Shown here: positions 26,015 to 45,033 of the stretch, in pieces
Position numbering within the stretch: the stretch's first letter is position 1
Layout of the letters: each line of letters opens with the position of its first letter
From: an uncultured bacterium
GTDB lineage: Bacteria; Fidelibacterota; Marinisomatia; Marinisomatales; JAHJCW01
Direction: 5' to 3'
Assembly (NCBI GenBank): GCA_963715945.1
Contig: CAVQSL010000015.1
Coordinates: 270,955-334,954 of the forward strand
DNA: 64,000 bases
Notes under the pieces: model-generated
Database searches by the model: none
The model's input: the letters and a program-made list of their open reading frames with translations, nothing else
What the model was told of the DNA's origin: nothing
Position numbers and translations under genes: made by a program

Positions 26015-26042
26015 TATATTTATTCTTCAAATTAATGGTTTG

Positions 26043-27860: not shown

Positions 27861-29164
27861 CCGAAGGACTATATCAAGATCTATTCTGGTACACTTTTAT
27901 ATTCTATTTAGGAGGATTCATTGCCTTCGCGATGTACTTTTCACTAAAAAAGGATTCCCTACATAAAATCGGTACGTTTTTATTGGTCATCGGTCTTCTA
28001 ATGCAAACAGGAGGGTTCATAGTCAAGTGGAGTCTCGTTGGACAAATCCGTTTCCAAAGTATGTTCGAATTCCTAATGCTTATGTCATGGGCCGGGGTTC
28101 TGCTAATTCTATATGGTATCACTAAATACAAGAGTCCTTTATTAGGTGTAGTTATTACTCCAATAATTGTAATGCTAAATGCAGCTGCAGCACTGTTAGA
28201 TAAATCTCCGGCAGAAAATCTAATGCCAGCATTACAAAGTAATTGGTTAACCATACATGTAGCACTTGCCGCCATTGGATCAGGCGCATTTGTAATAGCG
28301 GGCGCTGTCAGCTTATTCTACCTGTTAAGTAACCACAAATATAAAAAAGATGATAAAAAAGATTTTAATGGGTTTTTATCGATCGCTCTTATATATCTTA
28401 TTTATATACCAATTGCCTTATTCTTTATATTGAAGATTGTTGGATTAACACCACATCACACTGCTTTTCAATTCATGTCACAATTTGCCAGTCGTATGGA
28501 ATTCGAGAATGCTCGCACATTGCTTGGTCAATTGGTAATAGTACTCGGTTTAGTCTTTATTCCAATGATTGCTATTACGGGATATTTCTTTAAGAAAAAA
28601 ATTGCCGATTCAAAAAATTCAGGGTATGGTGGTGTATTATTTGCGATATTTGCTCTGAGTTTTGCCTTATCGAGCTTAATAGTAGGAATTTTAGTACACA
28701 ACAATATGATATTAATAACGCCACAAAGACATTTAGGAAGTATTTGGCGTTTCTTTGAATTTTTAGGTTCTGCTTATATTCTTACTTTAGCCGTTTTTGT
28801 ATTTTTATATTACTTGATATACCGCAAGTTGGGTTTATCCATTAATAAAATTTCTGATAAATTTGATCTATTAGATGAGATTAACTATCGTGCTGTTTCA
28901 TTAGGCTATCCTCTGTACACTGTTGGAGCACTTTTTGCCGGTGCAATTTGGGCAGAACAAGCTTGGGGAACATTTTGGAGCTGGGACCCTAAAGAAGTTG
29001 GCTCATTATTAGTATGGTTTTTCTATTCCGCAGTTCTGCATGCGCGCTACAATCGCGATTGGAAAGGTAGTCGTTTAGCGATATTATCGATAATCGGCAC
29101 ATCAATGATATTTATTACCTTTTACGGTAACTATTTCTTTGGTGGACTACACGCGTACGCTTAG
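27857..29164 (+). CDS. ccsA: cytochrome c biogenesis protein CcsA/ResC (system II heme handling)
   Basis: 435-aa polytopic ORF carrying the WWD signature WAEQAWGTFWSWDPKEVGSLLVWF. Confidence 0.85.
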   Translation: MTEGLYQDLFWYTFIFYLGGFIAFAMYFSLKKDSLHKIGTFLLVIGLLMQTGGFIVKWSLVGQIRFQSMFEFLMLMSWAGVLLILYGITKYKSPLLGVVITPIIVMLNAAAALLDKSPAENLMPALQSNWLTIHVALAAIGSGAFVIAGAVSLFYLLSNHKYKKDDKKDFNGFLSIALIYLIYIPIALFFILKIVGLTPHHTAFQFMSQFASRMEFENARTLLGQLVIVLGLVFIPMIAITGYFFKKKIADSKNSGYGGVLFAIFALSFALSSLIVGILVHNNMILITPQRHLGSIWRFFEFLGSAYILTLAVFVFLYYLIYRKLGLSINKISDKFDLLDEINYRAVSLGYPLYTVGALFAGAIWAEQAWGTFWSWDPKEVGSLLVWFFYSAVLHARYNRDWKGSRLAILSIIGTSMIFITFYGNYFFGGLHAYA

Positions 29165-29184: not shown

Positions 29185-30321
29185 TTATTTATGGATACCC
29201 GGAGAATATTCCGGGTATTCTATATCATCATGACAAATATTGCATGTTGGTTCAACTCTAAAATCACGATCTAGGTGGCAATTTTCACAATCCATTTCAA
29301 TATGAGAATCACTTAGGGTTAACCCTGTAACATTATGGTTAAATACGTCTACCTCCCAGTGAATATGACAATCATCACACTTAGTAGATGGAGTAACAAA
29401 ATTACTAACAGAGTTGTGACATTTATTGCAATCAACATTTTTATGATAATGACTCAGTTCAAATCCTGTAGAAGTATAATGGCTAAATGCTGGTTTTTCT
29501 TTTGCTGAATGACAAAATCCACAGTTCTTTTCTACATGACAATTACAACAAGTTTCTACATGCTCAATATTTTGTCTATTAACCGCTGGTTTATCAATAT
29601 CATGACAGCGGTTGCAGTTATCACCCTTATGGCAGTCAGTACAATTTAGCCCAAATAAATTAACATGATCGGTATGATGAAAGGTTACTATTGGACCTTT
29701 AGTATATTTTGTTTTATAAACATATTTTTCTTCAGCCTCAATCCGCGGATGTGGCACTCCAATAATGTCGGTCTTATCTTGTTTTACTGTTTTATCGGAT
29801 TTTTGTACTTCCACATGGCAAAATTGACATGCATTCCCATGACTCCACTCCTTATGACAACCTAAGCATTGTCTATGATATGCACCTTTTAAACTTGGCT
29901 GACTCAAGTTTGCTAAATATGGGTCAATCGTATGGCACTTGCTACAGGGTGGTATTTCACCTGATTTTTCGGAATAATGATGACACAGTGTACAACCACC
30001 ACTCATATCTGACATTGAAGCGTGCAATTCATGGGAGAATACAACCGCCTTGTATAATTTCATTAGTTTATCAATTAGTACAATTTTCGGCCCTGCTTTA
30101 TATGTTTGCTTACTTGAAAATTGACCACCTGGTCGAGCACATTGCATCAAACAGGGATTAAATTTGGTGGGGTTTTCACAAGAATGGCAGGATCGACAAT
30201 AATCATTCATTTCAGGGTTTATAACTTTATGATTATTGGGATGCTGTGGGTCAACAATTTGTCCACTTATAAATATCGTTGTAAATAATAGTGCAATGAC
30301 CAATTTAAAAAGCATTTTCAT
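29185..30321 (-). CDS. 13-heme c-type cytochrome (periplasmic)
   Basis: 378-aa ORF with a signal peptide and 13 CXXCH motifs: CRSCH, CTLCH, CSKCH, CLGCH, CQFCH, CTDCH, CNRCH, CCNCH, CGFCH, CNKCH, CDDCH, CENCH, CNICH. Confidence 0.85.
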   Translation of the reverse strand: MKMLFKLVIALLFTTIFISGQIVDPQHPNNHKVINPEMNDYCRSCHSCENPTKFNPCLMQCARPGGQFSSKQTYKAGPKIVLIDKLMKLYKAVVFSHELHASMSDMSGGCTLCHHYSEKSGEIPPCSKCHTIDPYLANLSQPSLKGAYHRQCLGCHKEWSHGNACQFCHVEVQKSDKTVKQDKTDIIGVPHPRIEAEEKYVYKTKYTKGPIVTFHHTDHVNLFGLNCTDCHKGDNCNRCHDIDKPAVNRQNIEHVETCCNCHVEKNCGFCHSAKEKPAFSHYTSTGFELSHYHKNVDCNKCHNSVSNFVTPSTKCDDCHIHWEVDVFNHNVTGLTLSDSHIEMDCENCHLDRDFRVEPTCNICHDDIEYPEYSPGIHK

Positions 30322-30324
30322 TAG

Positions 30325-31527
30325 TTAATTCTCCATATCCTCAATTACCGGGAAGTTCAATGCAAAAAATCTATATAGAAGTATAATTAGCGAAATAAAA
30401 CCAACCGTTACTGCTATTTCTGTCCAGGCTGGAATGTAGGGACCTTTCGCATAAAGTGGTGCATAGCCTGTAATAAATACATTGAACCGATTTAATGCTA
30501 CACCGAAAACTACCAAAGCAGCTCCCGAGAATAGCCAAACTGGATTCTTTCTATTTTTTTCAAACATTAAAATAATGAACGGTACTATAATGCCAAAAAC
30601 CATTTCTATTAAAAACATGATTCCTTCAATACTTCCATCAAACAAATATATGTATGTTTCTCTATTTACTATGTCCATCACCTTTGCTCCAAAATATACT
30701 ATTAGCAAAATTGGAATAAATCTTGCTAATCTACTTAACACCGTTATCTCAGGCTTTAACTTAAATGATCTTGATGCAATTAAACTTTCAAAAATCACCA
30801 TTGCAAAACCAACCACAAATGCAGATAACAGAAACAAAAGCGGTAAGACAGGTGTATGCCAAAGCGGATGAAGTTTAGTAGTAGCAATTGCCATCAGCGT
30901 ACCTAAAGATGATTGATGCATACAGGAAAGAACAACACCCAAAATAATAAATACCGACATGAATTTACTTAAAGTTTTATCAAAAATATTCAGTAGCCAT
31001 TCGAAAAATCTATTTAATCTTTTCAAACCGCCTGGCAAGTCTACCTTGCCCATGAATCGCTCTATCACTACCGGAATAAATTCAATATATAATACTGTAA
31101 CATATGCTAAAACGCATAGTCCTACTTCTAGAAGTACCGAATTAGGATTCCAATAAAACGGAATTAAAACATGCCAAATATTATAATACCTTCCAAGGTC
31201 AGAGAATACCCCCAAGGCAACAAAGGTATATCCCAACATAGCTGTTAAGATTGCCGGCCTAATTATACTTTTATATCCCTTCCCATGTATAACATGTGCA
31301 ATAAAAGCCGTCATAAACCCACCGGCTGCTAACGCTACTCCGCAAGCCACATCAATAGCAATCCATATACCCCATGGATATTGATCATCAAGATTGGTAA
31401 CGGCACCAATACCAAATACAAATCTCGCCAATAGCGATAATAAGCCGATAACCGCCAAAACTGTGATTACGATTACTGCCGGTGTAAAATAACGTGGTTT
31501 TTCATATGAAAGCGTACTATTCATCAC
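30325..31527 (-). CDS. NrfD/PsrC/HmcC-family integral membrane quinone-interacting subunit
   Basis: 400-aa ORF with about 10 transmembrane helices. It is translationally coupled to the upstream FeS subunit by an 11-nt overlap, which is the typical NrfC-NrfD pairing. Confidence 0.7.
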   Translation of the reverse strand: MMNSTLSYEKPRYFTPAVIVITVLAVIGLLSLLARFVFGIGAVTNLDDQYPWGIWIAIDVACGVALAAGGFMTAFIAHVIHGKGYKSIIRPAILTAMLGYTFVALGVFSDLGRYYNIWHVLIPFYWNPNSVLLEVGLCVLAYVTVLYIEFIPVVIERFMGKVDLPGGLKRLNRFFEWLLNIFDKTLSKFMSVFIILGVVLSCMHQSSLGTLMAIATTKLHPLWHTPVLPLLFLLSAFVVGFAMVIFESLIASRSFKLKPEITVLSRLARFIPILLIVYFGAKVMDIVNRETYIYLFDGSIEGIMFLIEMVFGIIVPFIILMFEKNRKNPVWLFSGAALVVFGVALNRFNVFITGYAPLYAKGPYIPAWTEIAVTVGFISLIILLYRFFALNFPVIEDMEN

Positions 31528-32404
31528 CTTCCTCCTTTTTCATCACTTTCATAATAATACCTAATAAACCAAACAACATAACCGGTCCTGCAAATCCTTT
31601 AAATATTCCGTGTTGAATTGTTTCGGTTAATTGAGCAGGACTTTTATCACCCAGTTCAGGAAAACCAATGTCTGTAAAAGGTTGGTTTGATAGATACATC
31701 CAAGATGTCCCACCTACCTCGTGTTCCCCATAAATATGATTAACATATCTATCAGGATGGGTTCTAATGCGCTCATTAGCCACCTCTAGTAGATCATTTC
31801 TATGTCCAAAAAGAATTGCCTCAGTTGGACACACTTCAACACAAGCGGGTAATTGACCATTTTTAATTGTTCTATCAAAACATAAAGTACATTTACGGAC
31901 TTGGGGCGTTAACACTTTTTCATATTCGTAAGCCGGAATTTGGAAAGGGCAGGCAATCATGCAATACCTACAACCAATGCATATATCAGGATTATAATTT
32001 ACCGGACCATTTGGGTCCTTGGTTAAGGCTCCAACAATGCAAGCTGAGGCACAAGCAGGATGTTCACAATGCATACATTGAACTTTTACAGTCAAGTCTC
32101 CGCCATTAATTCCTTTTTCGGTATACGAGTTTACAACAGTGTATTGTTCTGAAGTTGGTCTGCGCATATTTTCAAATACTGAAGTGTCAGAGAACGAATC
32201 TAACGGTTGATTCGGAAGCTCATTTGCTTCATTACATGCCCATTCACATCTACGACAACCTATGCAGTAGGTTAGATCAGACAACACACCAAATCTATCG
32301 GGGTTTAATTCATCATGGTGCTTTGCTTTTAGACTTGATACACCAGCTAATGATCCTGAAGCAATAGCTAATGTTTTTAAAAATTCTCTCCGTTCAATTC
32401 CCAT
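31517..32404 (-). CDS. Tat-exported 4Fe-4S ferredoxin-type subunit (NrfC/HybA/HmcB-like) with C-terminal membrane anchor
   Basis: 295-aa ORF with twin-arginine signal ERREFLK. Four Cys clusters are present (CIGCRRCEWAC, CMHCEHPACASAC, CIGCRYCMIACP, CTLCFDR...PACVEVCP). The C-terminal helix is PVMLFGLLGIIMKVM. Confidence 0.8.
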   Translation of the reverse strand: MGIERREFLKTLAIASGSLAGVSSLKAKHHDELNPDRFGVLSDLTYCIGCRRCEWACNEANELPNQPLDSFSDTSVFENMRRPTSEQYTVVNSYTEKGINGGDLTVKVQCMHCEHPACASACIVGALTKDPNGPVNYNPDICIGCRYCMIACPFQIPAYEYEKVLTPQVRKCTLCFDRTIKNGQLPACVEVCPTEAILFGHRNDLLEVANERIRTHPDRYVNHIYGEHEVGGTSWMYLSNQPFTDIGFPELGDKSPAQLTETIQHGIFKGFAGPVMLFGLLGIIMKVMKKEEGDE

Positions 32405-32548
32405 TATTTATTTCCTGTTTAAAGTTTTCTATTATATATCATATAAAAATAGTAGGCAAAGAATTTGGCCAAACAAGACACCTAACTCCTCTTTTAATGA
32501 ATTAAATATTACTAAGATAATATAATGGAATCAAGAGTATTAAGGAAT

Positions 32549-32581
32549 AAAAAAAACGGCTCCAAATAAAGAGCCGTTTTT
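32549..32581 (-). terminator. rho-independent terminator ending the long cytochrome operon
   Basis: On the minus strand, aaaaacggctc-tttatttg-gagccg is followed by T8. It lies 24 nt after the stop of 32605..33318. Confidence 0.75.
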
Positions 32582-32604
32582 ATCATAGATAGCTAATTTA
32601 TATA

Positions 32605-33318
32605 TTATTTATTGTCCTGATCTTTTTTAGAGATAGAGAGCGAATCCATTTCTTTCTTTAAAAAATCTTTTTCTTCTTTCTTGGCATCTTCCAAATGAAG
32701 TGGATGTTCACGTTTATACATGTCTTCCGGCATCTTTCCTGTTAACCAAGATGTATTCATTGGATAGACATGTGGGTTAAACAACGTTGAATATAAATGC
32801 CATACTCCAATAGCTAATGTTGCTAGCCATGCTTCCCAATAATGTATTATGAGTGACACATCAAGGAATCCTTTTGGTAGAAATAGACTAAAGTAGTTGT
32901 CAAACCAGAGGAATATTCCTGTTATTATCATTACAGCAGTTCCCCAAACCAGTGCCCAATACTCAGCTTTTTCTATATAACTAAAGCGTTTGAATTGTGG
33001 TGCCTTATCCCGCTTACCAAGATTATACATGATTCTTTCGTAGAATTGTCTAAAATCTACCAGATTTGGCCACATATCCTTGAAAAATGCCTTACCTCTT
33101 GGTGTAACTAAAATGAACAGTATGTGCCAAAGTACTGTAACGATAAATATAACTGCTGAGATCCTATGGATCAATCCTCTTAACTCAAATCCGCGTTCCC
33201 AACCAAAGAATAAATTTGTTATCCATGAATCACTAAAACGCAGTGCAAAACCTGAAATAACTAAAGCAATGAAACTAACCATTGTTAAAGTATGTTGCCA
33301 TACTTCGGAAGTTCTCAT
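32605..33318 (-). CDS. b-type cytochrome membrane subunit (FdnI/HydC-like, Ni_hydr_CYTB family)
   Basis: 237-aa ORF with 4-5 transmembrane helices carrying conserved His residues (WQHTL, LIHRISAVIFIVTVLWHILF, IIHYWEAWLATLAIGVWHLY). It starts 4 nt after the 11-heme gene. Confidence 0.7.
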   Translation of the reverse strand: MRTSEVWQHTLTMVSFIALVISGFALRFSDSWITNLFFGWERGFELRGLIHRISAVIFIVTVLWHILFILVTPRGKAFFKDMWPNLVDFRQFYERIMYNLGKRDKAPQFKRFSYIEKAEYWALVWGTAVMIITGIFLWFDNYFSLFLPKGFLDVSLIIHYWEAWLATLAIGVWHLYSTLFNPHVYPMNTSWLTGKMPEDMYKREHPLHLEDAKKEEKDFLKKEMDSLSISKKDQDNK

Positions 33319-33322
33319 TCTT

Positions 33323-34570
33323 CTAACTTGCGGCTTTCTGCATAGAGTTCACGATTTGCCGAATTAGATCTATGATCCAGTGAATTAACATAGCACCAAT
33401 GATTACAATTATTGCAATGATATATATTTTTTCTATCATATCGGCAATTGGAGTATGCAGACCGCGGTTGGTAAAACCATGTATTGGTGTAGCAGCTAAT
33501 CGTTCGGAAATCTTTGGATGGCATTCTCCGCAAGTATGCTGAAGATTCGTTGGATGGATGGATGACTCTTCGTTTTTACTGGGTAGTATTCTGTGAACAC
33601 CATGGCAACTAGCACAATTCGCAACATGCGTATCACCAGACTTACTTTTTAATCCGTGATAACTGTCTACAAAAGTACGCAATCTTCCAGCCGGCATACC
33701 ATATTTTTCGTTAAGTCGAGCAGAATCATGACAGGGGGCACAGGTCATTTCTGCAACTTTTGCTTTTGAAACGGGAGAACTTGGATCATCAGGAGAAATA
33801 ATTCCATGTTCACCGTGACAATGTGTACAAACGGGAGCATCTGTTTCTCCCCTTGCAGCCAATTGTCCATGAATTCCATCCCAATAATCTTTTTCAACAC
33901 CTTTATGACATTTACCACATGTTTTTGGAATGTTGAAATGGTTAATTGTAGACTCTGCATGGCCAGGTGAATATATCTTGTGTGCAGTTTCACCGGTGGA
34001 GTGACAGTCATTACATGTGGCAGCTACATATACTCCCCCCATAGAAGCCTGTCCATGTACACTTTTTTCATATATTTGTCCTGGGTGATCAATTAACATA
34101 TCATATCTAGCCGTAAGATCTAGGTCTTCATGGCATTTTCCACAGGTCGCTGGCAGATTTGTAGGATGTGCCATAGAATTTCGATCTTCTGATGGTAACA
34201 CATTATGATCGCCATGGCAATCAGCGCAATTTGGCATATCAGGAACTTCTCCAATTAGTGCAACACCATGAGCTTTGTATTGATCAGCGGCGTCTTTGTG
34301 ACAAGTTCTACAACCCTGGTCGGCAACCATAAAATTAGTAGCTTCACGATGTGGATCGGTATTTTTATCGCTATGACAATCTAAACAACCAAGACCCTTG
34401 TGTATCGAGCGCGAAATGTCCTTTTCTATATCAGTTCCGTGTGCACTCTCTTCATGACAATCAACACACGAATCTTCATCTATGTAGTCATAACCCGTAC
34501 CTTGAGAAAATAATAAGGATATTGGGACTATCAGAATGAGAGATAATATTATCTTATTTAATTTGTTCAT
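33323..34570 (-). CDS. 11-heme c-type cytochrome with C-terminal membrane helix (doubled-CXXCH type)
   Basis: 415-aa ORF with a signal peptide and 11 CXXCH motifs. Repeated CxxCH...H...P.S...TC..CH spacing is visible. The C-terminal helix is IYIIAIIVIIGAMLIHWII. Confidence 0.85.
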   Translation of the reverse strand: MNKLNKIILSLILIVPISLLFSQGTGYDYIDEDSCVDCHEESAHGTDIEKDISRSIHKGLGCLDCHSDKNTDPHREATNFMVADQGCRTCHKDAADQYKAHGVALIGEVPDMPNCADCHGDHNVLPSEDRNSMAHPTNLPATCGKCHEDLDLTARYDMLIDHPGQIYEKSVHGQASMGGVYVAATCNDCHSTGETAHKIYSPGHAESTINHFNIPKTCGKCHKGVEKDYWDGIHGQLAARGETDAPVCTHCHGEHGIISPDDPSSPVSKAKVAEMTCAPCHDSARLNEKYGMPAGRLRTFVDSYHGLKSKSGDTHVANCASCHGVHRILPSKNEESSIHPTNLQHTCGECHPKISERLAATPIHGFTNRGLHTPIADMIEKIYIIAIIVIIGAMLIHWIIDLIRQIVNSMQKAAS

Positions 34571-34587
34571 ATGCTACCTATCTTATT

Positions 34588-36555
34588 TTAATTAGAGATT
34601 TTACTTATTAAGTCTTTGTACTTGTCTAGCAATCCTGAAACTAATTCTATATTATGAACACCTAGACTTTTATCGTTTTCTATTTTTTCGATTCCATTTC
34701 TAATCGAATCGACTTTTTGCCGATTGGCTTTGTCCAAATCATAATATACTAAGTTATTTAAATTTTGCTTGATCTCAAAAATCATTGTTTCGGTATTATT
34801 CTGCCAATTCCTTACTAGTTCATCATAGTTAGACTCATGGCAATTACTGCAATTCTTTCCCTGCTCCGCGGATATTTTTTCTTCATCATCTTCATGACAA
34901 TTGTTACAGTCAATATCAGCTTCAAACATAACGTCCGGCAAGATTGTGTCAGAAATTTCTATTGTTCCATCATATAGATGTGCTTGAATTTGGTGACACT
35001 TTACACAATTAGTTTCTTCTTGTGAATGATGACAGGTTAAGCACGCATCCCTTGTAACTGTTGTTTCACCATGAGAAGTTTTATGAGAATGGCAGGAAAG
35101 GCATTCAAGTTTATTCTTTTGAATGTGCGTTTCATGATCAAATAGTATTCCAAATGCTTCAACTTTTTTATTTTCCTGCCCATAATGACAATTTTGGCAT
35201 TTTGATGGCTTTGCAGTATTATATAGCTGGAATGGCGGCAAAGACAAGTCAGAACCGACTGACTTTAATACTTTTTTGAGATTACCATAGGCATCTAAGA
35301 GCAACTGATCAGAATATGCCACATTATGAACTACATTTCCTGTTTCAACTAATTGATAATTATATGTAGCATCTTTTAATAGTTTTGTATTACTGCTGGA
35401 CATTTTTCCAACACTATTAATTTGGTCTAAGCCAAGCTTAACTAAACTTAGCTTTTCTTTCATATTGTCTTCCCATTGTTGATACAGTCTAGCATATCCT
35501 TGGCCATGACATTTTTCGCAGGATTTACCAGTAGCGCGTGTTTTGCCTGAAATACCAAATTCTGACTCATGGATAAATGTGACATGCTTTGCAATTTAGT
35601 CCTGCCGTGAACATGGGATTGGGATGATTGACAACATTTTTACCACCTGTTCCAGAGAAAAGATCAAACTGCGCTCTATGTGGTGTTTCATGACATTCTT
35701 GGCAGTCCGGGAATATATCTGCTGTGCGTGCAATAGATTTATGTTGAATTGGTATATGACAGTTTTCACATTCTACCTTGTGGTCTGTTACATGCATTTT
35801 GTGAATAAATTCTGGATCAGATATTTTTTCAAGCTTGCCTTTTTCTGCATGACATGAACTACAGCGACCTTCTAACACATCACCGGTTCCAATTACCATT
35901 CCACCATGACAATTTGTACACTCAATTTTTTGTGCGTTTACAAAACTGTGATCATATTTTACCGGTGAGTTACCACTAGCGACGGGAGCTATATGACACC
36001 AAGTACAATCATTCATGGATTTATCATCATCAACATTTTTAAAATGACATAGGAAACAAGTTGATTCTGTAACAGTCATGTGTTCGCCTTGAACAATTTG
36101 TGAATGGCAACTGGTACAGCGCAATTTTTTATTGCGTTTTAAGTTATTCAAATGAGAATTATGATTGAAATGGATATCTTGTTTAAATATTACATCCTTA
36201 TTTAATTGTTGCTCTGCATGACATCCTGAACGCAGACAGCTTGCATCTTCTATTTCTGCTAATGGTTTGCTCTTTTTGTACACTCCTGTAAAATAATTTA
36301 CAACCATAGATGCTGCAGTAAACTTTCCTTTGACTTTAGATTTGAATCCAGGTGGAAAATGACATTTTGTACAAGTTACATCTGAATGACTGGACGTTTT
36401 CCAGTCTTCAACATAAGGTTGCATGAAATGGCATGATGAACAAAAATTAGGTCTTGATGTTAATTCTGCAGCACCCCACAATAGTGCTAATAGCAATACA
36501 ATACTTGACAGAATGAGACGAAACTTATTTTTGCGATTTTACCGATACGACTCAT
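34588..36555 (-). CDS. about 17-heme cytochrome with NapC/NirT-type membrane-anchored N terminus (frame break near 35580; N terminus uncertain)
   Basis: ORF 35567..36496 has the NapC/NirT signature (TSRPNFCSSCHFMQPYVEDWKTSSHSDVTCTKCH) and 10 CXXCH. A bridging frame (FIHESEFGISGKTRATGKSCEKCHGQGYARLYQQWEDNM) joins it to ORF 34588..35463, which has 6 CXXCH. The ATG at 36555 (MSRIGKIAKISFVS) needs one more shift. Confidence 0.7.
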
Positions 36556-36683
36556 TAGCGGCTAGCCAAACGTACCAAATAAAATCAACACCAATAAAAT
36601 TAATCCGATTAATAAAAATGTATAACCAATAATGAAAGTATAAAATCTTTGCCCAACGAGGTAGTGGTGGAATTAACTTAGAC

Positions 36684-37374
36684 TTATATTCTATTTTTGT
36701 AAGACTCTGCAAATTCTAGGGATCTTTCTTCCTCAAATTTACCTTCAGGAATTCTACCCGGTAAAAATCACTTCGTCCATAGGGAAGGCTCCTGGTCTAA
36801 GATGAGTATTAAAGAAGTGGACTACAAAAATGAAACCAGTTGCTAATAATGCTTCTTCGGAATGAATTATATGAGCAGCATTAATTATCCATCCCGGGAA
36901 CAATGATGAGAACGCCTCAGGAAACCACAATGTTAATCCTGATGACCCAATAATTAACATACCCCAAACAACTGCAAAATAATCAAACTTCTCCCAATAT
37001 GTCCATTTACCCCAAGCCGGTTCTTCCTTTTTAATTCCAACAAAGTATGCCATGTGATTAAAGAAATCTTTTATGTCCTGAACTCTTGGGACCAAACTGT
37101 TGTACACCGGTGAATATACCTTTCTCTTGCTTTATAAATGCTTTATGAAAGACCTTTCCAAGATGGATAACAAATACAACACCCATAGTGAATGCCGCAA
37201 TTCTATGCAATAATGCTGCTTGCTCGAAACCAATGACATTATGCACCAACCATGTAGCCATTTTGGAATGGGCATATTTTAGTGGAAGACCTGTTCCGGC
37301 AAGTATTAAGAAATGAAAGTGCCATTAAAGAAATGTAGAATTCTTTCCAATATAGCAAATCTTTCAACTCGCAT
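36684..37374 (-). pseudogene. b-type cytochrome membrane subunit (paralog of 32605..33318), about 3 frame breaks
   Basis: The ATG at 37374 gives MRVERFAILERILHF. ORFs 37058..37261 and 36754..37107 carry the His-containing helices (LLHRIAAFTMGVVFVIHLG, IIHSEEALLATGFIFVVHFF). The tail GRIPEGKFEEERSLEFAESYKNRI ends at 36684. Confidence 0.6.
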
Positions 37375-37381
37375 TTTGGTT

Positions 37382-39076
37382 TTAATTAGGTTTTTTAATT
37401 GGACCATGTTTAATCCGTCGAATCATTAATCTTATTAACCAAAGAACGGTATGACTGCCAAATACTGTAACACACTCACCAAGCAACCATAACATAAAAG
37501 TGTTAATCCAGCTTAATACTTTGTTATCGGATTTTGTATGAGGTGTATAATGTTGCAAAAATTGAACAAAATTGTCATTAACATTATCATGGCATTGTGC
37601 GCACGTAGCAATTATATTATCTTTCCCAACGGAAGATGCTGGATCATCACTTGGTAATATTGAGTGATTATCATGACAGGATACACATGTAGCGAATTTT
37701 TCTCCTTGATATCCAAGCTGGTACATTTGTCCATGATAGGAAGTCTCATAACCTTCTACTACATCAGGATTTAATTGAAATTGCATAGTAAGATCACGAT
37801 CACCATGGCATCGGCTACATAATTCAACAATAGAGTGGCCGAAAAATTGCTCTTCTGATTTACTGATTCGTTTTTCATCATGACAATCAATACATCCTGG
37901 TGATTCTAAGTGACCTCTCGCACGAGTCACATAATGAGTAGAATTTTCGTACTGCTTTTGTTGCTCCTGATGACAATCAGCACATGATTTTTCTAATGCT
38001 CTATCTTTTTCATGTTCGGGTGCCATATAATGATATGTATGACAATCTCCACAATTTGATTCTTTACCCATGGCAACTTTAGCAATCTCTTCGCGATGAA
38101 TTGCGCCATGAGCTCTGTCTTCTTCAATTATTAAACTACCTTCATGACATTTAATACAAATTTCATCTAATTTTATGTCAAATACATTAGTAGCAACTGC
38201 CACCATGCATTTCTGTTTGGTGCCCCGTATGGCAAACAACACATGTTTCCAATCGAGGATCGTCATTTTCATCGTGGACGGTGAATTGAAGCTTCATACC
38301 CAGCATGGCAGTTCATACAAATTTTATCTAGCTTCGCAACCGATACAATGCTTTCAGTATCACGAGGTGACAAAACCCGATGTGTTGCGTGACAATCAGT
38401 ACAAATAGGAGCTTTTAGGTTTCCTGATGCTACTTGTTTATAGTGAGCACTATTATCATAGTTTTGCGACTTCTCGAGCATGGCATCCACGACACTCTTC
38501 TGTTATTTTTATTTTCCAATCTTTTTTTGAATAACGCTGATCTTTCATCTTTTTCATGCGGTGAGTGGCAAGAAACACAATTAAGATTATCATGTTTATT
38601 GGGCAATCCCCAATGTGCAGAGTTTAAAAAATCATCTAATACATCTTTATGGCAAATTCCGCAGACTTGTCGTGGCTCACCTTTCCAGGTAACTGAATGT
38701 GTACCATGACAATCAGTACAAGTTGGAATAGATTTATAACCTTTCTTTCTTAAGCGGATCAAAAAAGTGATCGATAAATTCTTCTTGGGCACCTTCGTGG
38801 CAATTTCCGCAGAAAGGTAAGTCTAAATTTTTTGCATGCGGAAAATTCTTCTACACCATATAGATCCTCATGACAATCTACACATGCAAATCCTTCGTGT
38901 GGAGAGTTCTCGAGGTGTTCATCGGTTACATAAAGTGATACTTCAATTCCTCTAAGAACTTTTGTTAGCGTATCATCTTCATGGCAAGATACACAAACAT
39001 CATTATCTTGTGAGAATAGAAGAAGGGGAATTCCAATAAACAATACTAATTTTTTGAAATTCCCCATCAAAGTCAC
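37382..39076 (-). pseudogene. about 17-heme c-type cytochrome with C-terminal membrane helix (longer paralog of 33323..34570), at least 6 frame breaks
   Basis: Fragments 38759..39076 (signal peptide plus 2 CXXCH), 38430..38792, 38269..38490 and 37382..38272 are collinear. Additional CXXCH motifs (CGNCH, CRGCH, CVVCH) are readable only in bridging frames. One break sits on a T7 run at 38522-38528. Confidence 0.65.
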
Positions 39077-39090
39077 TTAAAAATTATATT

Positions 39091-39676
39091 TTATTTAGAC
39101 GGATTCGGATGAGCGAATTCAGCAACCTTTTCATCGTATTTGAATGGTTTGTGGGTTGGACTGTTTTCATTATGACATGCAGTACATGTTGCTTTGTTAA
39201 CTTTTAATAAACCAACCGAAGCGGCTGTAATTTCACCGGCAAGAATTGCCTTTTTGACTTTACTTGATTTAAATTCGCTACCAGCTCCATGACAAGCTTC
39301 ACAACCAACGGCTTGTAATCCTTCCATTCTTTTCACTGCTTTTGCACCGTCTTTATCATCTGCTGTAGGATTCCAGAAAGTGTCACCTTTTACTTCATAA
39401 CCACCTTTCCCAAATCCGGTTGTATGGCATTTTAAACATTCAGGTGCTTTCCATGCTTCAACTTTAATTCCTTTTTCCTTTGGCAATTTTAGCCGATTTC
39501 TCGGATTTTAACGTTTCAAAAGCCTTAGCATGAACACTTGCTTCCCATTTTGTGAATTGAGCGCCTTTTTCAGTTTTATTATGGCACATTTTGCAGCTGG
39601 CACTTCCAACATATTCGAAACCCTGCGCAAGTATAAAAGTCGATAATGTTAGAAACACGATAATTAATTTTTTCAT
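39091..39676 (-). CDS. tetraheme cytochrome c (cytochrome c554-like family), one frame break at a T5 run near 39475
   Basis: ORFs 39464..39676 (signal peptide, CKMCH) and 39091..39486 (CLKCH, CEACH, CTACH) together give about 195 aa. Confidence 0.7.
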
Positions 39677-39696
39677 TCTGTCTCCTTAATCTATTT

Positions 39697-40096
39697 CTAT
39701 AGTTCGTTATGACATGCAAAGCAACTTACTTCAGCAACCCCACCAGATAAATCTTGTTCCATGACAAGCTTTACATGTCTGAATATCTTCTTTGCCGTGA
39801 AAGTTAGCACCATCAGGTAATCCCACCCAAATACTAAATGCCGGATGCCCGCTTGGTCCACCAGCATGGCATTTATAACATGATACACCGCTAGTACCAC
39901 CAAAATAATCATGTTTTTCTAGTCCACCATGGCAAGCTTTACATTCTTCAGTTCCTGTTACAGCAATTTTTGCCATATGCGAATTTTCGGAACTAGGGTC
40001 ATTCCAATCACTTGGATGCATTGTTGGTTCGCCAAGCTTTGTACAGCCTGTTACAAGAAATATTATAAAAGATAATATTAGAATTTTTTTCATCAT
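39697..40096 (-). CDS. tetraheme cytochrome c lipoprotein, one frame break near 39740
   Basis: The start MMKKILILSFIIFLVTGC|T contains a lipobox, and its ATG overlaps the upstream TGA. Heme motifs are CKACH, CYKCH and CKACH, with CFACH in the terminal fragment (ORF 39697..39912). Confidence 0.65.
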
Positions 40097-40938
40097 CAAT
40101 CTCCTGTATGGCATTTTAGACAAGAGGAATCTTTTGATGGAATGTGACAAGTGGCACAGAGTTCAGCTTCACTTGCCGCAAATTCTCCGTGTAATCCGCC
40201 ACCTTTAACAGTGACCCAATTATGAAAATTATGATTCATCGGCATTACTTGATTCTCGACATGGCAGGAATAACAATCTTCAATAATTTCATGACAAGTT
40301 GAACATTCCATAACACCTGCTTTTGCCTCAAAACCGTGCGTAAACATATAATCAACCGGATGTGTTTCCGGTGTGTACTGTTGAAGCTGATGACATTCTT
40401 CACAACTATTATTGGTATGGCATAATGCACAATTGCTTTCGGTGCTGCTATTCATTTCTGCGCCATGTATTTCTTTCCATGCTAAATTATGAGTTTTTGG
40501 ACCTTTATCTAAATTCATATGGCAGGACTGACAGTCGGATTCATTCCAAACATTTGGATATCCAATTTCACTGTCATTATCAATATAGCTATGGCACTTA
40601 CTACAATCATCAGTATTTGCTAAATGAACATTGTGTGAAAAACCAAGGTTACTAGTCGTCCAACTTTTGCTGATTGGCAACGGTCCATCAGGATTTGCGT
40701 GGCAATATTCACAATGCTCCTGTGGCAGTATCTCCGTCATGACACTCTATACATAAATCCATCTTCGGGAAAATAGTCCATGACTGTCCCTCTGCTTCAG
40801 CAACACCGGTGTGACATTCACTGCAGGACAATTCCATGTCCTCTACATGTAAACTATGTTGGAAGAGTATCCGTCTTTATCTTGACCAAAAACAAAAATT
40901 AACGGTATTAAAAATACACTTATCTTAAAACGCCACAT
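40096..40938 (-). pseudogene. 11-heme periplasmic c-type cytochrome (MtrA-like heme density), two frame breaks
   Basis: The ATG at 40938 gives signal peptide MWRFKISVFLIPLIFVFGQ. A bridging frame carries CSECH and CIECH. ORF 40096..40740 carries 9 more CXXCH. The whole protein is about 280 aa. Confidence 0.65.
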
Positions 40939-42131
40939 TTATTATTATACCTCCTCTTCCATCTTGTTCAAAGTAGGGATTTGTTGAAAATCGTCCGTAT
41001 AGTTTCAACATTATAAAATCTTTTGGTTGCCAACCTACCCATCCATAAGCACCTGATGATGATTTAAGATCGGCAAAATCGCCATAATCTAAAGCATTTA
41101 ATGATACGCTTCCACCAAAACTTAACGGTCCACTCAGTTTATGTGTAGCGCCCAAAATTAGTCCGAACATCTTATTATCGCCTTCAAGTCCGCCCAATAT
41201 TGAAGCCTGAATTTTTTTATAATTGACAGAGCTGACTAAAAAACTTTTTCCCTCTTCCGCAAGGCGATAGGAAAGTTGATTGCGCCATAATAAATCATTG
41301 GCAATCAAAGAATTAACATCAAATGTGATAGTGGGGGCAATCCCAATCTTATCACTAAGTGTTTCAAAATCAGTAAAATATTCAAATCTTTTTTGTCGGA
41401 AACCTAAACCTAAAGTATGGTCTCCAATTTTTTTACTAAGGCGAATCCTTGCATAATTTAATTTTGTTTCGCCTATATCAAATGCTATCGCATTAGAAAT
41501 GCGGATGCCAAATTTTGATGTATTAAAATATATTCCAGTAAATGGGTTAATTCCATCAGCATCGCCTTTCATCCAAAAGGATACTGCAAGATTCTTTCCT
41601 ATGCGTCCTTTTGACCAAGCTGCCATGAAATATGTATTATCTGTAAATAATGTGTCGCTAAAATCTGTTACTGCTTTTAATCCGCCGATCAAACTAAGAG
41701 TGCCTAATTTTTCTGTATTTAGGTCAAACTGTGCACCATCAACACGAGTATTCTGCAATGCGTTCCAAATTGCAATGCGGCCAACTGATAGTTCATGCTT
41801 GCCAATATCAAGATCGGCTGTTAAATGATGAACTCGGAGAGGATTTTGGAAATGATCGTTCTCAGAGCCATATTCGAACAATGCATCAACCCCAAACTTA
41901 CTGCCGAATTTCTGATCGTAGCTGAACTAGACTGCGCCAATGTGCCTGTTCTTCTGCGTCTGTCATACTAAGGCGCGGATACATAGCGGATGATGAAATT
42001 GATATATTTGGTTTTGAACCAAATACAGTTGAAACATTAAGAATAACAATTAACAAAAGGAGTTTTGTTGACAATATGATTTTTCTTTTTGATTTCAATT
42101 TAAAATATTTCATCATCCGCCTATTTTTCAT
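40925..42131 (-). CDS. outer-membrane beta-barrel protein (porin-like, about 400 aa), one frame break near 41920
   Basis: ORF 41898..42131 supplies the signal sequence (LLLLIVILNVSTVFG). ORF 40925..41881 shows alternating hydrophobic strands, is Gly/aromatic-rich, and ends in ...GGIIINVAF, the C-terminal Phe typical of barrel proteins. Confidence 0.55.
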
Positions 42132-42143
42132 TTTAATTATATA

Positions 42144-43121
42144 TTAAGACCCAGTTACATAGTTAAACTCACCAGGTGCGGACCACTTATGACTTTGTAA
42201 ATCGTCATAAATCATGCCATTTGCACTGAATTTGAGAGTTTTAGCATTATAACCTAGGGCGTTTAACCACGCTGCAATCACTGAAGCAGTTTGTCCTGAC
42301 CAACAATAGATAACAATTTCTGCATCAGGATCCAATATGTTTAAATTTGCAATATTCAACTCACCCGGTGTAAGCTGGTACGCTCCAGCAATATGTCCAT
42401 AAAGGTCCCAATCGGCTTTGCTCCAATAACAATATATATCGAAGGCTGATGGGTTTGCCAGAACATCTGTATTATTAATTCCATTAAGACCGTCAACCAC
42501 TGAATTTGCAATCTGATAATCAAGAATTGCCGCGCCATCTTCAGAGCCTGAATCCAATTCAGGTGTGTCATCATAATTTGGTAATGTAGTTGAGGCATCA
42601 TCATCTATCCAACTACCAGGATAATCATTAGCTTTATTACCAATCAAATTATCCCACAAATTGAAATCACTGTGCCAACTGCTCATACCCCAGAGTAATG
42701 ATTGAGCAGATACGCCAGCTAAACGTAATGCTGCAACACCATGACCTGAATCGTGACCACTATAACAAGCAACAACAACTGGTAGGTTGTTAGTGTTATT
42801 TGCAGCTTCATATGCAACCACATCAGCAAGTGCTACACTGTGAGCTCCTGTTATATGTCCATCTTCAAAATCTGGAGTACCTGCAAAGTATTTGTCACCT
42901 TTGCGAATATCCATGATGAAGTAGCCTGCCGGATTGGCATTCACAGTTGCTGCAGATACGCCCCAACCATTTAATATTTCTGGTAGGTCTAAATTGTTCT
43001 CAAGCATGAAATCAACCATTTCATCAAACTCAACAACACCATCTTCATTTTTATCGCAACCCGCCATGAAAAAAGCGAACATCACGATCAATATGAAATA
43101 CAATACTTTTTTTGTTTTCAT
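42144..43121 (-). CDS. periplasmic lipoprotein with two rhodanese-like domains
   Basis: 325-aa ORF with lipobox FFMAGC|D. There are two active-site-loop-like segments, VVVACYSGHDSGHG and IVIYCWSGQTASV. Confidence 0.7.
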   Translation of the reverse strand: MKTKKVLYFILIVMFAFFMAGCDKNEDGVVEFDEMVDFMLENNLDLPEILNGWGVSAATVNANPAGYFIMDIRKGDKYFAGTPDFEDGHITGAHSVALADVVAYEAANNTNNLPVVVACYSGHDSGHGVAALRLAGVSAQSLLWGMSSWHSDFNLWDNLIGNKANDYPGSWIDDDASTTLPNYDDTPELDSGSEDGAAILDYQIANSVVDGLNGINNTDVLANPSAFDIYCYWSKADWDLYGHIAGAYQLTPGELNIANLNILDPDAEIVIYCWSGQTASVIAAWLNALGYNAKTLKFSANGMIYDDLQSHKWSAPGEFNYVTGS

Positions 43122-43148
43122 TTATTATTTGTTCCTATCTTTTGTTTA

Positions 43149-44600
43149 TTAAGGTTTTTGCCAAGTATTTGGCACTTTATCATCAACTACTACAGATGTA
43201 TTTGCTATCACTTCATCTGGATAATCACTTTCTACATCACTTTTCCATAAGAATAATTCCGAATTTGCATCTGCATTGATACCCTGGGCATGGCAATTTA
43301 AAAAACAATAACCGCCGCCTGTAGTATCGGTTTGTTGTGTAAATCTTTTTATGTTATGCGGGCTTGAATATTCCCAAGTTGGACGCACATCATAATTTGC
43401 TAATTGGTCGTGCCCCCAAGGTCTATAGCTATCTCTAACTATCGGGATATGCCGTACAACGATAAATTTTCCGTCGTGTAAATCTTGGTTATAATTGTAA
43501 CCAATTTTAAAATCAGGATATTCTTTATAATCTCCTGCTCCGGTATGTACATCAGTTTCATCATGAGATTCTGCATAACCTGTTTGCCACCATTCGGATA
43601 AATCTCCACTAGGATCTTTAGTATGACAGCTATTGCAGTTCCTATATGGTTGCGAATGGCACACAAAGCATGCCAACCCTTCCCCCTGTCCCGGCCAGTG
43701 TACCTGATGATAAAAGTTTGGTGTCTCTAAATAGCTATGACAGTCTTCGCAATTTGGAAGGTCAGGCAGATGATAACGTGTAGCACTACCACTTGCATCA
43801 GCATGCATATTTTCCTTATGGCAATCCAAACATGTCATATATTTTGTTGAATGAATATCAGGATCGTTCCCTACCAAATGTCCTTCAAAATCAGTTGCAA
43901 TTCTGCTACCATGACAAGCAAGGCAGTTGTTGGTTTGGTCCGGTGACTTTTTAAAACGATGACTTTCTATAAATCCGCCTGCAGCACTGTTAGGTCTACT
44001 TACGTGGCATTGTCCGCAAGTAGTATGACAACTCATACACTCCCTATCAAATCCTTCGGTTAACTCTGCCGGCAATCCATTAAAATTATTATGGTCTTTG
44101 TCTGCCCCCAACTCCCGCTGAGCAATGGTTGTTTGTTCTCCCCAAAGCTTAGAGTGCATACTATTGGCATTGGTAGCGACTATATCTTTATGGCAAGGAC
44201 TACAATTAGATTCAGCATCCATTGAGGGATCTCTTACAAAACCAAAATTTTCAGCGTCATGAGCTGTAGCAAATTCTGCCGGTTCTTTACCGCCGTGGCA
44301 CGTTACACAGCCAATTAAAGCATGCGCTTTATCAATATCTGCGTATGATTTTTGTCTTCCAACCAATTTGATAAAAACTTTTTCCCATGGTTCCAACGGA
44401 ACCACTTCGCCGCCTCATCCACCACCACTGCCACCTGTTGCTTCACCCGTTGCGTACATTTTTAAAGTTGATTCACTAGTGTGGCAACCTTCGCAAGTTG
44501 ATGGGTCTCCCAAATCAACTGTTTCGTGACCGGGATCACAAGCAATCCACAAAAGTGATAATAAAGGAACGGCTATTATTTTAATTTTTTTCATCATCAT
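43149..44600 (-). CDS. decaheme c-type cytochrome lipoprotein, interrupted by one in-frame TGA (44415-44417)
   Basis: ORF 44415..44600 (lipobox LLWIAC|D, CEGCH) and ORF 43149..44405 (9 CXXCH plus one CFLNCH) are in the same frame. They are separated only by GGSGGG-TGA-GGE. Confidence 0.75.
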
Positions 44601-45033
44601 CTATTACAACATACATTTTATTTAGTTTACCTGCGCTGCAGGCATATTTATATACTTCGCAATCGCGACAGCTCGATTCACGACAAACTTTTGAACCTTG
44701 GTCGGTTAATGTCCAACATACTACCAGGCCATTTTTATATGCTTTACAGGCCTCACAGTCTGTTTTAGAACATTTACTTTTTATTTTCCAACACGGCATT
44801 AAAGCTAACAATGTGCGGACACCTGCAATGTTCATCTTGTTCTCAGTTATCTGCTCGCGGAAACACTGTATCCATTCTAGATCTCTTTCGGAATAAAGTC
44901 GGTGACCCGATGGGGTTTTATGGGCAATTACTAACCCTTCCCTTTCATATAGTCGCAATAATTCTGGAGAAACACCAAGTTTACTGGCAGCCATGCCGAT
45001 ACCAAGCAACGGTTCGTTTGAATCAAATGTCAT
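44581..45033 (-). CDS. MerR-family transcriptional regulator with Cys-rich C-terminal domain
   Basis: 150-aa ORF with a MerR HTH (IGMAASKLGVSPELLRLYEREGLV...SGHRLYSERDL). There are 10 Cys in the last 85 aa or so, including a duplicated CX4CX2C motif (CSKTDCEAC, CRESSCRDC). Confidence 0.75.
   Translation of the reverse strand: MTFDSNEPLLGIGMAASKLGVSPELLRLYEREGLVIAHKTPSGHRLYSERDLEWIQCFREQITENKMNIAGVRTLLALMPCWKIKSKCSKTDCEACKAYKNGLVVCWTLTDQGSKVCRESSCRDCEVYKYACSAGKLNKMYVVIDDDEKN

Follow-up and report, generated by a model that had tools for sequence, protein, structure and literature searches.

Where does the electron path through a multiheme cytochrome island end? The question is raised by a locus on the minus strand (positions 29185-45033) of a 64-kb stretch of DNA, referred to here as the window, from an uncultured marine bacterium of the Marinimicrobia, within the Fibrobacterota, Chlorobiota and Bacteroidota (FCB) group. 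The locus encodes eight multiheme c-type cytochromes along with inner-membrane modules, a predicted outer-membrane barrel and a rhodanese-type lipoprotein. The original prediction, made without database searches, took it for an electron conduit from the inner membrane to the cell surface with no terminal catalytic subunit. The conduit reading is partly supported by the analysis described below, whilst the claim that a catalytic subunit is lacking is probably wrong. A decaheme lipoprotein at the head of the locus is predicted to be a selenoprotein, its selenocysteine (Sec) or cysteine residue co-varies perfectly with the adjacent rhodanese, and the pair parallels ExtH and ExtKL of Geobacter. 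This undescribed and widespread family of Sec/Cys multiheme lipoproteins, locked to a rhodanese, is the most interesting content of the locus.

The interrupted decaheme gene and its rhodanese partner

The decaheme gene had been read as a lipoprotein gene with a frame break. The multiheme lipoprotein stands, but its interruption is not a frameshift. Instead, an in-frame TGA (44417-44415) separates a 61-codon open reading frame (ORF), carrying the lipoprotein signal and the first heme motif, from a 418-codon ORF in the same frame. The codon lies in the context GGSGGG-TGA-GGEVVPLEPWEK, which gives the protein motif GGG-U-GGE with Sec as residue 62, and a TGA is found at the matching codon in the related loci L001 and L002. 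A homology search in which U was replaced by C returned many products cut at the Sec site, full-length homologues with Cys, and others with neither residue. A scan of one genome per GTDB species placed the decaheme in at least 597 species-level genomes, in the FCB group and beyond, and 80 of these loci (at least 597 in all) were retrieved for codon analysis. The Sec position is TGA in 45 of the 80, TGC or TGT in 31 and a codon for another residue in four. The TGA loci come from Marinimicrobia, Calditrichota, Lentisphaeria, Gemmatimonadota, Myxococcales, Eisenbacteria and others, the TGC/TGT loci from Ignavibacteria (including Melioribacter roseus) and Bacteroidota. In the Cys homologues the Cys aligns with Sec in a GCGGE or GCGG[E/D] motif, within the wider pattern G-x-G-G-[E/D/S].

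Shortly downstream of the UGA is a hairpin resembling a selenocysteine insertion sequence (SECIS), which in the window reads GUGGUUCC-GUU-GGAACCAU (Table 1). At least six of its eight pairs can form in 41 of 46 TGA sequences, compared with mostly two to five of eight in homologues with a Cys codon. Across a 38-sequence alignment 86.8% of cells are paired, as against 37-47% when the 3' partner is slid. Two-sided, compensatory changes occur in five of the seven pairs (32 cells), and none of 500 shuffles equalled the observed covariation. The decaheme is a selenoprotein by the standard criteria for bacteria, because it combines a conserved UGA, a SECIS-like element and Cys homologues. Reassignment of TGA in the genetic code was considered and rejected, as the window has a single site of this kind and TGA serves as the stop codon of other genes there; no further candidate Sec site was found in the 64 kb. 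A locus from a metagenome-assembled genome (MAG) labelled Actinomycetota (L040, position 2169) has the Cys codon TGT yet retains a perfect 8/8 hairpin of SECIS type, and looks like a recent Sec-to-Cys conversion. In the Sec-type loci, the gene calls examined split the decaheme at the UGA. Surveys that count hemes in search of ‘extracellular electron transfer (EET) cytochromes’ will therefore mislabel it, and the split gene serves as a caution for annotation.

The decaheme matches no NCBIfam family at E<=0.01 and only weakly the c7 and c554 models of Pfam. A profile of the family found nothing significant among PDB sequences, the nearest being fragments of NrfB and NrfA at E 0.005-0.14. Foldseek returned no match for an AlphaFold2 (AF2) model of the protein (predicted local distance difference test score, pLDDT, 69.5), which is a weak negative because the model contains no hemes. 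Beyond the heme motifs and the lipobox, no additional invariant Cys is present in the family. Several homologues (P0135, P0140, P0146, P0213, P0223 and P0237) bear the Joint Genome Institute name ‘thiosulfate/3-mercaptopyruvate sulfurtransferase’, with listed Pfam domains that are all of cytochrome type; the name may have come from the adjacent rhodanese or from fused forms. Literature searches yielded no account of such a cluster in Marinimicrobia, nor of any Sec decaheme with a rhodanese as its partner. A review published in 2026 on prokaryotic selenoproteins covers ExtKL, an octaheme of the Otr family, a protein of the GSU2204 family and UshA-like proteins, and none of the families it lists fits the decaheme (PMC13188914).

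The gene that follows encodes a tandem-rhodanese lipoprotein. Among its orthologues the two active-site Cys residues are invariant in 69 of 69 and 68 of 69 sequences, and the lipobox Cys in 68 of 69. Both catalytic loops have the six-residue length of sulfurtransferases, CY[ST]GQ[TS]A and C[YW]TGQTS in the orthologues. The lipid Cys is followed by an acidic stretch from +2 to +6 (consensus C-S-D-D-D-D), resembling the surface-export signal of Bacteroidetes lipoproteins. Much longer rhodanese ORFs are present in L018, L020, L037, L039, L048 and L083.

The association between the two genes is strict. All 75 Sec/Cys loci with sufficient flanking DNA have a tandem-rhodanese gene beside that of the cytochrome, on its immediate downstream side in nearly every case, and loci with neither Sec nor Cys have none (Fisher p ~1e-5, with phylogeny not corrected for and before L086, L087 and L088/L089 were added). 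Six loci that lack both the residue and the rhodanese (L017, L028, L032, L086, L087 and L088) have retained the barrel and/or further cytochromes of the cluster. In L086 and L087 the order is MerR, decaheme, barrel, 11-heme, tetraheme and c554, with the rhodanese precisely missing; in L086 the 17-heme-cytochrome b gene comes next. L088/L089 likewise keeps MerR, decaheme and other cytochromes without a rhodanese. The joint gain and loss of residue 62 and the rhodanese argues strongly, on comparative grounds, for concerted action of Sec/Cys62 and the sulfurtransferase, and their covariation is a sequence signature of a catalytic, chalcogen-handling enzyme. In L088 (10310-13554) the Sec/Cys-less decaheme is followed by NHL-repeat proteins and a 691-aa cytochrome with an MtrC-like domain, a different outer module on the same scaffold.

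Proposed electron path, orientation and substrate

It is suggested that the island encodes a respiratory chain leading from the quinone pool to the outer membrane and ending in a catalytic selenoenzyme rather than a passive heme wire, most likely for the respiration of elemental sulfur (S0) or polysulfide. The chances that this is correct are put at about even. In a first step, for which the domain content provides support, quinol would exchange electrons with up to four inner-membrane modules: two multiheme fusions to cytochrome b (one of 17 and one of 11 hemes), the 17-heme protein of NapC/NirT type, and NrfC and NrfD together with the 13-heme cytochrome. The c554-type tetraheme and the periplasmic 11-heme cytochrome could then ferry electrons across the periplasm. 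Gene coupling and the barrel model suggest that the 11-heme protein sits inside a barrel of about 22 strands, touching the lipoprotein cytochromes, so that electrons would end at the lipoprotein tetraheme and the Sec decaheme.

The barrel is central to this third step. An AF2 model of its orthologue P0241, built on a 30-sequence alignment, is all-beta with about 22 strands (pLDDT 75; predicted template modelling score 0.61), which in this moderately confident model would be wide enough to house a cytochrome. In Foldseek it matches only outer-membrane barrels, namely FimD/PapC ushers (24-stranded), OccD/OpdK porins and VDAC, at E ~1e-6 and a TM-score of ~0.45; these matches are generic, and assignment to a specific barrel family was given up. 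The family is small, has no Pfam or NCBIfam model and finds nothing significant among PDB sequences. When its hidden Markov model (HMM) was iterated over the fetched loci, it reached Calditrichota, Ignavibacteria and M. roseus, and the gene was always directly upstream of a periplasmic multiheme gene. The barrel stop codon and the 11-heme start overlap by 14 nt, in L001 and L002 as in the window. The two genes have a porin-cytochrome layout, to judge from their arrangement, and share a transcription unit with two lipobox cytochromes.

A selenoenzyme might also be organised with the topology known from Geobacter, with the Sec cytochrome and the rhodanese facing the periplasm, the barrel acting as a channel for polysulfide or selenite, and no electrons crossing the outer membrane. 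In many Gram-negative bacteria the default orientation of lipoproteins is towards the periplasm, and the Foldseek matches of the barrel include substrate-specific porins of the Occ/Opd type. The Geobacter sulfurreducens counterpart, the extHIJKL(MNOPQS) cluster, encodes a rhodanese lipoprotein, a porin-like barrel, the small protein ExtJ and ExtKL, a pentaheme with one Sec (PMC5877670, PMC6148476). ExtKL was described in August 2026 as MccSep, a Sec- and heme-dependent, tetrameric polysulfide reductase that is periplasmic and essential for S0 respiration; its Sec325 works beside a heme ligated by His/Cys, and selenite is a poorer substrate (PMC13510729). The barrel ExtI has been implicated in selenite and tellurite reduction and proposed to be a channel (PMC13510729, PMC5877670). 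Nevertheless, a purely periplasmic arrangement of the island is considered unlikely. The 14-nt overlap, and a barrel/11-heme pairing conserved across phyla, are typical of MtrA/MtrB- or OmaB/OmbB-type pairs; the acidic segment of the rhodanese is like that of surface-exported FCB lipoproteins; and the heme content of the locus is far above the needs of a soluble periplasmic reductase.

In the preferred reading, a chain that ends in a catalytic selenoenzyme, the last step would take place at Sec62. The conservation of Sec/Cys, the SECIS element and the co-occurrence of the rhodanese suggest that Sec62, on its glycine-rich tether, works with the tandem rhodanese, which is probably surface-exposed. 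The rhodanese would take sulfane sulfur (or selenium) from S0 or polysulfide (or selenite) as a persulfide and pass it to Sec62; the heme chain would then reduce the Se-S adduct, freeing sulfide. Selenium or tellurium oxyanions are possible alternative substrates.

A different view is that the island is purely an extracellular conduit, delivering electrons to insoluble Fe(III)/Mn(IV) oxides or to electrodes or taking them up from there, in which the decaheme is the terminal heme wire and Sec/Cys merely a heme ligand or redox tuner. Such a role would suit the porin-cytochrome-like layout. Furthermore, homologues without Sec/Cys and rhodanese keep the rest of the conduit, and the decaheme can therefore also act as a plain terminal cytochrome. 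M. roseus, which carries a Cys-type cluster, respires Fe(III), arsenate and nitrite, and neither S0 nor thiosulfate stimulates its growth (PMC3534657). Anodes enrich Ignavibacteria with porin-cytochrome (Pcc) clusters (PMC7399161), and Geobacter strains in which extHIJKL was the only retained cluster reduced 50-75% of the wild-type amount of Fe/Mn oxide (PMC6148476). What this view leaves unexplained is the upkeep of Sec, a costly residue that is almost always catalytic, in 45 of the 80 loci, and the presence of an active tandem sulfurtransferase in every Sec/Cys locus and in none where the residue is missing. It is accordingly held to be improbable. By analogy, soluble or colloidal sulfur or selenium species would be at least as likely substrates as Fe/Mn oxides or electrodes.

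The island could instead oxidise sulfide, S0, thiosulfate or metal sulfides at the outer membrane by means of the Sec cytochrome and the rhodanese, with electrons passing inwards to the quinone pool or to oxidases and N-oxide reductases. Both NrfD-type modules and those of cytochrome b type are able to run in either direction. The enzymes TsdA and SoxAX, which have His/Cys-ligated hemes, are oxidative, and the MccSep mechanism has been described as related to their reverse reaction (PMC13510729); moreover, Marinimicrobia inhabit sulfidic and oxygen-minimum gradients (PMC5688066). Sox, Dsr and Sqr partners are, however, lacking within the locus, the sole characterised analogue is reductive, and the sequence itself gives no sign of the direction in which electrons flow. 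An oxidative role seems very unlikely.

Several observations weigh against a sulfur-reducing selenoenzyme at the end of an outer-membrane conduit. Neither the window protein nor two of its Cys homologues match the ExtKL model NF040886, even at E<=10, this NCBIfam model being the only means by which homology to MccSep was assessed, and the decaheme family has neither a second conserved Cys outside the heme motifs to correspond to C239 of MccSep nor a separate conserved Cys that would ligate a heme. The chemistry of the decaheme could therefore differ. The barrel model is of only moderate confidence (pLDDT 75), and no specific conduit barrel, such as MtrB, was matched. The choice of substrate rests on analogy, and M. 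roseus, the locus of which (L049) pairs a Cys-type decaheme with a rhodanese, is not stimulated by S0 (PMC3534657).

With these reservations, it may be proposed, tentatively and as somewhat doubtful, that the decaheme is the founding member of a second family of multiheme selenoenzymes, one that arose independently and is spread widely through the FCB superphylum, with hosts among the abundant Marinimicrobia of the ocean and the cultivable Ignavibacteria. It would lie at the outer face of the outer membrane, fed by a porin-cytochrome unit, and would work with an extracellular rhodanese to reduce solid or colloidal S0, polysulfide, or Se/Te species, as the surface counterpart of periplasmic MccSep. 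Before the study of MccSep in Geobacter, of August 2026, the mechanism by which bacteria respire insoluble S0 had not been resolved, and that study left open the route by which sulfur species reach a periplasmic enzyme. A selenoenzyme and a sulfurtransferase at the cell surface, wired through the outer membrane, would be a different answer to the problem of access to sulfur, and a second, convergent use of Sec on a multiheme scaffold. The proposal, if true, would also give a role to a gene cluster present in hundreds of genomes of uncultured FCB-group bacteria, among them the Marinimicrobia of oxygen-minimum zones, and would tie marine selenium demand to sulfur cycling. As the cultured Melioribacter and Ignavibacterium carry Cys-type versions, the idea is directly testable.

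Layout of the island and integrity of its genes

The features of the island are listed in Table 1. The gene order, as given in the original prediction, was borne out by an ORF listing and Pfam, with two transcription units separated by the terminator that had been noted between them. The short gaps and overlaps of the first unit also stood; the MerR gene runs 20 nt past the start of the selenoprotein gene and, apart from the barrel/11-heme overlap, spacing elsewhere is 2-27 nt. The number of genes in this unit did not. It had been given as twelve and is ten, because both cytochrome b segments are the C-terminal domains of fusions (831-833 and 652-656 aa), as they are in all relatives.

Table 1. 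Features of the multiheme island and its immediate surroundings, in window coordinates
Feature	Position	Strand	Remarks
MerR-family regulator, Cys-rich C-terminal domain	44581..45033	-	Pfam MerR_1 6.8e-13, MerR 1.4e-10
Multiheme lipoprotein, predicted selenoprotein, ~482 aa	43149..44600	-	10 CXXCH and one invariant CX3CH; lipobox LWIAC
SECIS-like hairpin, 7-8 bp stem, apical loop G-U-U	44387..44405	-	starts 10-11 nt after the UGA
Tandem-rhodanese lipoprotein, sulfurtransferase type	42144..43121	-	Pfam Rhodanese, 2 stretches; active sites CYSGHDS and CWSGQTA
Predicted outer-membrane beta-barrel, ~395 aa, ~22 strands	40925..42131	-	signal peptide; ends ...NVAF; +1 frame break ~41927
Periplasmic 11-heme cytochrome, 279 aa, Sec signal peptide	40096..40938	-	frame breaks ~40875 and ~40717, mutually compensating
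Small tetraheme lipoprotein, 131 aa, lipobox LVTGC	39697..40093	-	one frame break ~39757
Soluble periplasmic tetraheme, cytochrome c554 type, 194 aa	39091..39676	-	Pfam Cytochrome_C554 on orthologues; one frame break ~39481
17-heme periplasmic domain with C-terminal FdnI/HydC-type cytochrome b, 831 aa	36562..39076	-	13 frame breaks
NapC/NirT-type membrane-anchored 17-heme cytochrome, ~652 aa	34588..36555	-	frame breaks ~36513 and ~35572
11-heme periplasmic domain with cytochrome b, ~653 aa, CbcL-like architecture	32605..34570	-	+1 insertion at 33340, giving 415 + 237 aa
Intrinsic terminator, boundary of units 1 and 2	32552..32581	-	12-bp stem with 5 GC pairs, then T run
Tat-exported NrfC-type 4Fe-4S protein	31517..32404	-	Pfam Fer4_11 2.7e-20; twin-arginine motif ERREFLK
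NrfD-type integral membrane quinone-interacting subunit	30325..31527	-	Pfam NrfD 4.9e-28, full length
13-heme periplasmic cytochrome, HmcA/c3-like domain	29185..30321	-	Pfam Cytochrom_CIII 9e-15; NCBIfam HmcA 6e-13 (partial)
System II cytochrome c maturation: resB/ccsB, 160-aa ORF, ccsA	26225..29164	+	converges on unit 2

In a window of about 35% G+C, the minus strand between 28 and 46 kb contains 88 CXXCH motifs in any frame, as against 0-1 per 2 kb in the remainder of the 64 kb. After frame repair the eight cytochromes hold 10+11+4+4+17+17+11+13 = 87 CXXCH, the figure counted originally and also the total of the intact orthologous cluster in L002, and the repaired proteins contain no CXXCK motif, again as first reported. 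Of the domain families for which a search had been advised, Cytochrom_NNT, Cytochrome_C554, NrfD, Fer4_11 and Ni_hydr_CYTB were found in the window or its orthologues; the Pfam matches comprise MerR, two Rhodanese stretches, NrfD, Fer4_11 with its RR motif for twin-arginine translocation (Tat), Ni_hydr_CYTB and Cytochrom_NNT. The clustering of three types of quinol gate with shuttles and an outer-membrane module holds up in the light of the domain content, the barrel model and the lipobox cytochromes. It had also been noted that the conduit idea would fail if the large cytochromes belonged to catalytic families; in NCBIfam scans no island cytochrome scored above the curated cut-off of NrfA, HAO/Otr, MccA or any other catalytic multiheme family.

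Orthologues of the 17-heme-cytochrome b protein are single polypeptides of 831-833 aa with Ni_hydr_CYTB. The NapC-type protein has an N-terminal membrane anchor and matches PF03264 (Cytochrom_NNT) at 35.4 bits, against a cut-off of 24.1 (window 35567-36496), and its L002 orthologue matches the NrfH model of NCBIfam at 4.7e-15, below the equivalog cut-off. More than 6900 homologues of the 11-heme-cytochrome b protein were found, and those closest to it that carry names are ~650-aa fusions called ‘cytochrome b/b6 domain-containing protein’ from MAGs of Candidatus Neomarinimicrobiota, Marinimicrobia or Fidelibacterota. In the second unit, the Tat-exported 4Fe-4S protein and the NrfD-family membrane subunit together make up an NrfCD-type module. 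The c554-type tetraheme matches the Cyt554 model of NCBIfam at 1e-11 and scores best (1e-17) against the cytochrome domain at the C-terminus of NF041198, the family of UshA-like (seleno)proteins, which is another selenoprotein context.

Related Marinimicrobia (L001, L002, L003, L005, L008, L009, L013 and L015) keep the complete gene order in intact form, with L001 having the same order but no NapC-type gene. In the syntenic MAG loci L001 (GCA_003934915.1), L002 (GCA_028282845.1) and L003, all cytochrome, barrel and rhodanese genes are unbroken. The Tat FeS gene of L002 (12649-13536) is split into ORFs of 74 and 205 aa, and that assembly is thus also broken at least once in the island. The MerR gene upstream of the Sec cytochrome is kept in most loci of the Marinimicrobia type. 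A MarR gene lies between the units in L001, L002 and L008 and is missing from the window and the near-identical contig L084. The MarR of the relatives (L001 12069-12617; L002 12104-12646) also ends in a Cys-rich domain, like the MerR of the window, and both regulators may be redox or sulfur sensors.

That the second unit converges on genes for cytochrome c maturation was confirmed by the orthologues in L001 and L002, in which the ccs genes match PF05140 (ResB) and PF01578 (Cytochrom_C_asm) in a colinear region of 78% nucleotide identity. Over 23292-27385 and the matching parts of L001 and L002, resB, a conserved 160-aa ORF with no Pfam domain, and ccsA adjoin the heme-rich island, and near them are genes for a TetR regulator, a TonB-dependent receptor and an HmuY-like heme-binding protein. 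This neighbourhood may reflect heme supply. Rfam and tRNA scans of the window gave no matches and no tRNA gene.

Although the gene order is conserved, several genes of the window are broken. Frameshift-aware protein-to-DNA alignment against orthologues located 21 frame breaks in seven genes, between 33340 and 41927. Thirteen are in the 17-heme-cytochrome b fusion, two each in the periplasmic 11-heme and NapC-type genes, and one each in the genes for the barrel, the lipoprotein tetraheme, the c554-type tetraheme and the 11-heme-cytochrome b fusion; the Sec cytochrome, rhodanese, FeS, NrfD and 13-heme genes have none. All but two of the 21 are single-base (+1) insertions. The truncated products P0001 (the 415-aa product of the window), P0301 and P0295 are on record from the public 700,548-bp contig, and the breaks therefore belong to the deposited assembly.

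These breaks could be real mutations, the island in this strain being a decaying cluster of pseudogenes. They are present in the deposited assembly and were not made by handling of the window, and they are confined to 8.6 kb, with none in the flanks that align to relatives (23-33.3 kb and 42-46.5 kb, that is 10 kb and 4.5 kb). Gene decay in bacteria, however, is biased towards deletions, and insertions of a single base make up 19 of the 21. Furthermore, the repaired frames of the broken genes contain no nonsense codon or large deletion, where so many neutral indels would be estimated to come with several stop codons, and at 67-87% identity to orthologues they are near the 78-92% of the three intact genes of unit 2. 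Two short-read contigs from another sample, L084 and L085, share the MarR-less arrangement of the window at 95% and 97.5% DNA identity, respectively, and have the genes intact at exactly the sites in question, the NapC-type gene of L084 included. Decay is consequently judged unlikely. Because relatives this close are intact, the 21 breaks are probably unpolished insertion errors in a long-read assembly, a conclusion that can be held with fair assurance, even if a density of 13 breaks in one 2.5-kb gene is odd for assembly error too. Homopolymer slippage was rejected as the cause, most insertions lying outside homopolymer runs, as was programmed frameshifting, the extra bases being missing in relatives. 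Two other places in the window have overlapping ORFs on the same strand and may be frame-broken: 19441-20737, where an ORF for a radical S-adenosylmethionine protein resembling lysine-2,3-aminomutase follows one of 120 aa, and 49523-51566, where the second of two ORFs ends in the Por_Secre_tail domain of the type IX secretion system (T9SS).

Comparison with known systems

The inner-membrane modules have recognisable counterparts. The fusions of a multiheme c domain to an FdnI/HydC-type cytochrome b share the architecture of CbcL, with 11 and 17 hemes in place of nine. The N-terminal NapC/NirT anchor (PF03264) is of the type found in ImcH and CymA, which have four to seven hemes compared with 17 in the island protein, and the Tat FeS protein, NrfD subunit and c3-like multiheme cytochrome resemble NrfCD and Hmc. 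Unlike the known quinol gates, the island has all of these types together in one locus.

The MtrCAB system of Shewanella offers the same functional logic of a periplasmic decaheme within a barrel and an outer decaheme lipoprotein. The island barrel, however, has about 22 strands and 395 aa, compared with 26 strands and ~700 aa in MtrB, which is not among its top Foldseek matches. The Sec decaheme, the barrel and the 11-heme protein do not match the OmcA/MtrC or DmsE/MtrA decaheme models; matches to the DmsE and MtrC models are confined to other cytochromes of the island and are below threshold.

The original prediction placed the conduit in a non-proteobacterial background, with some novelty implied. 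The background is indeed Marinimicrobia, but the novelty is less, because Pcc-type clusters had already been reported in the Ignavibacteria Ignavibacterium album and M. roseus (PMC4245776, PMC7399161). Like these clusters and OmaB-OmbB-OmcB of Geobacter, the island places a periplasmic multiheme gene beside a porin-like barrel and genes for lipoprotein multihemes, accompanied by inner-membrane and periplasmic cytochromes, and its barrel family extends to the loci of M. roseus and other Ignavibacteria. It differs in its heme numbers (11 periplasmic and 10 outer, compared with 8 and 12), in a barrel that belongs to no recognised family model, and in an outer cytochrome of the Sec/Cys type tied to a rhodanese, a pairing for which no description was found among Pcc systems.

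The closest known system is the extHIJKL(MNOPQS) cluster of G. sulfurreducens. Both loci combine a rhodanese-family lipoprotein, a porin-like outer-membrane barrel of ~45 kDa and ~21 strands, and a multiheme c cytochrome of ~50 kDa with one Sec. In both, an in-frame UGA is followed by a SECIS-like hairpin, Sec- and Cys-type homologues exist, and further multiheme cytochromes and a membrane module of cytochrome b type belong to the cluster. The modules themselves differ, being cytochrome b fusions, NapC/NirT and NrfCD in the island and a Rieske/cytochrome b pair in the ext cluster. The decaheme has ten CXXCH and one CX3CH where MccSep has five hemes, and a lipobox where MccSep is soluble and periplasmic. 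Its Sec62 lies on a Gly-rich N-terminal tether (GUGGE), whereas Sec325 of MccSep is in a DGUP loop of a C-terminal Ig-like domain. Most members of the MccSep family come from Desulfobacterota and Nitrospirota (PMC13510729), in contrast to the decaheme family of Marinimicrobia, Calditrichota, Ignavibacteria and Bacteroidota. As far as sequence comparison goes, the decaheme is not a member of the MccSep family. Regardless, the module to which it belongs appears to work like ExtH, ExtI and ExtKL, as an independent invention.

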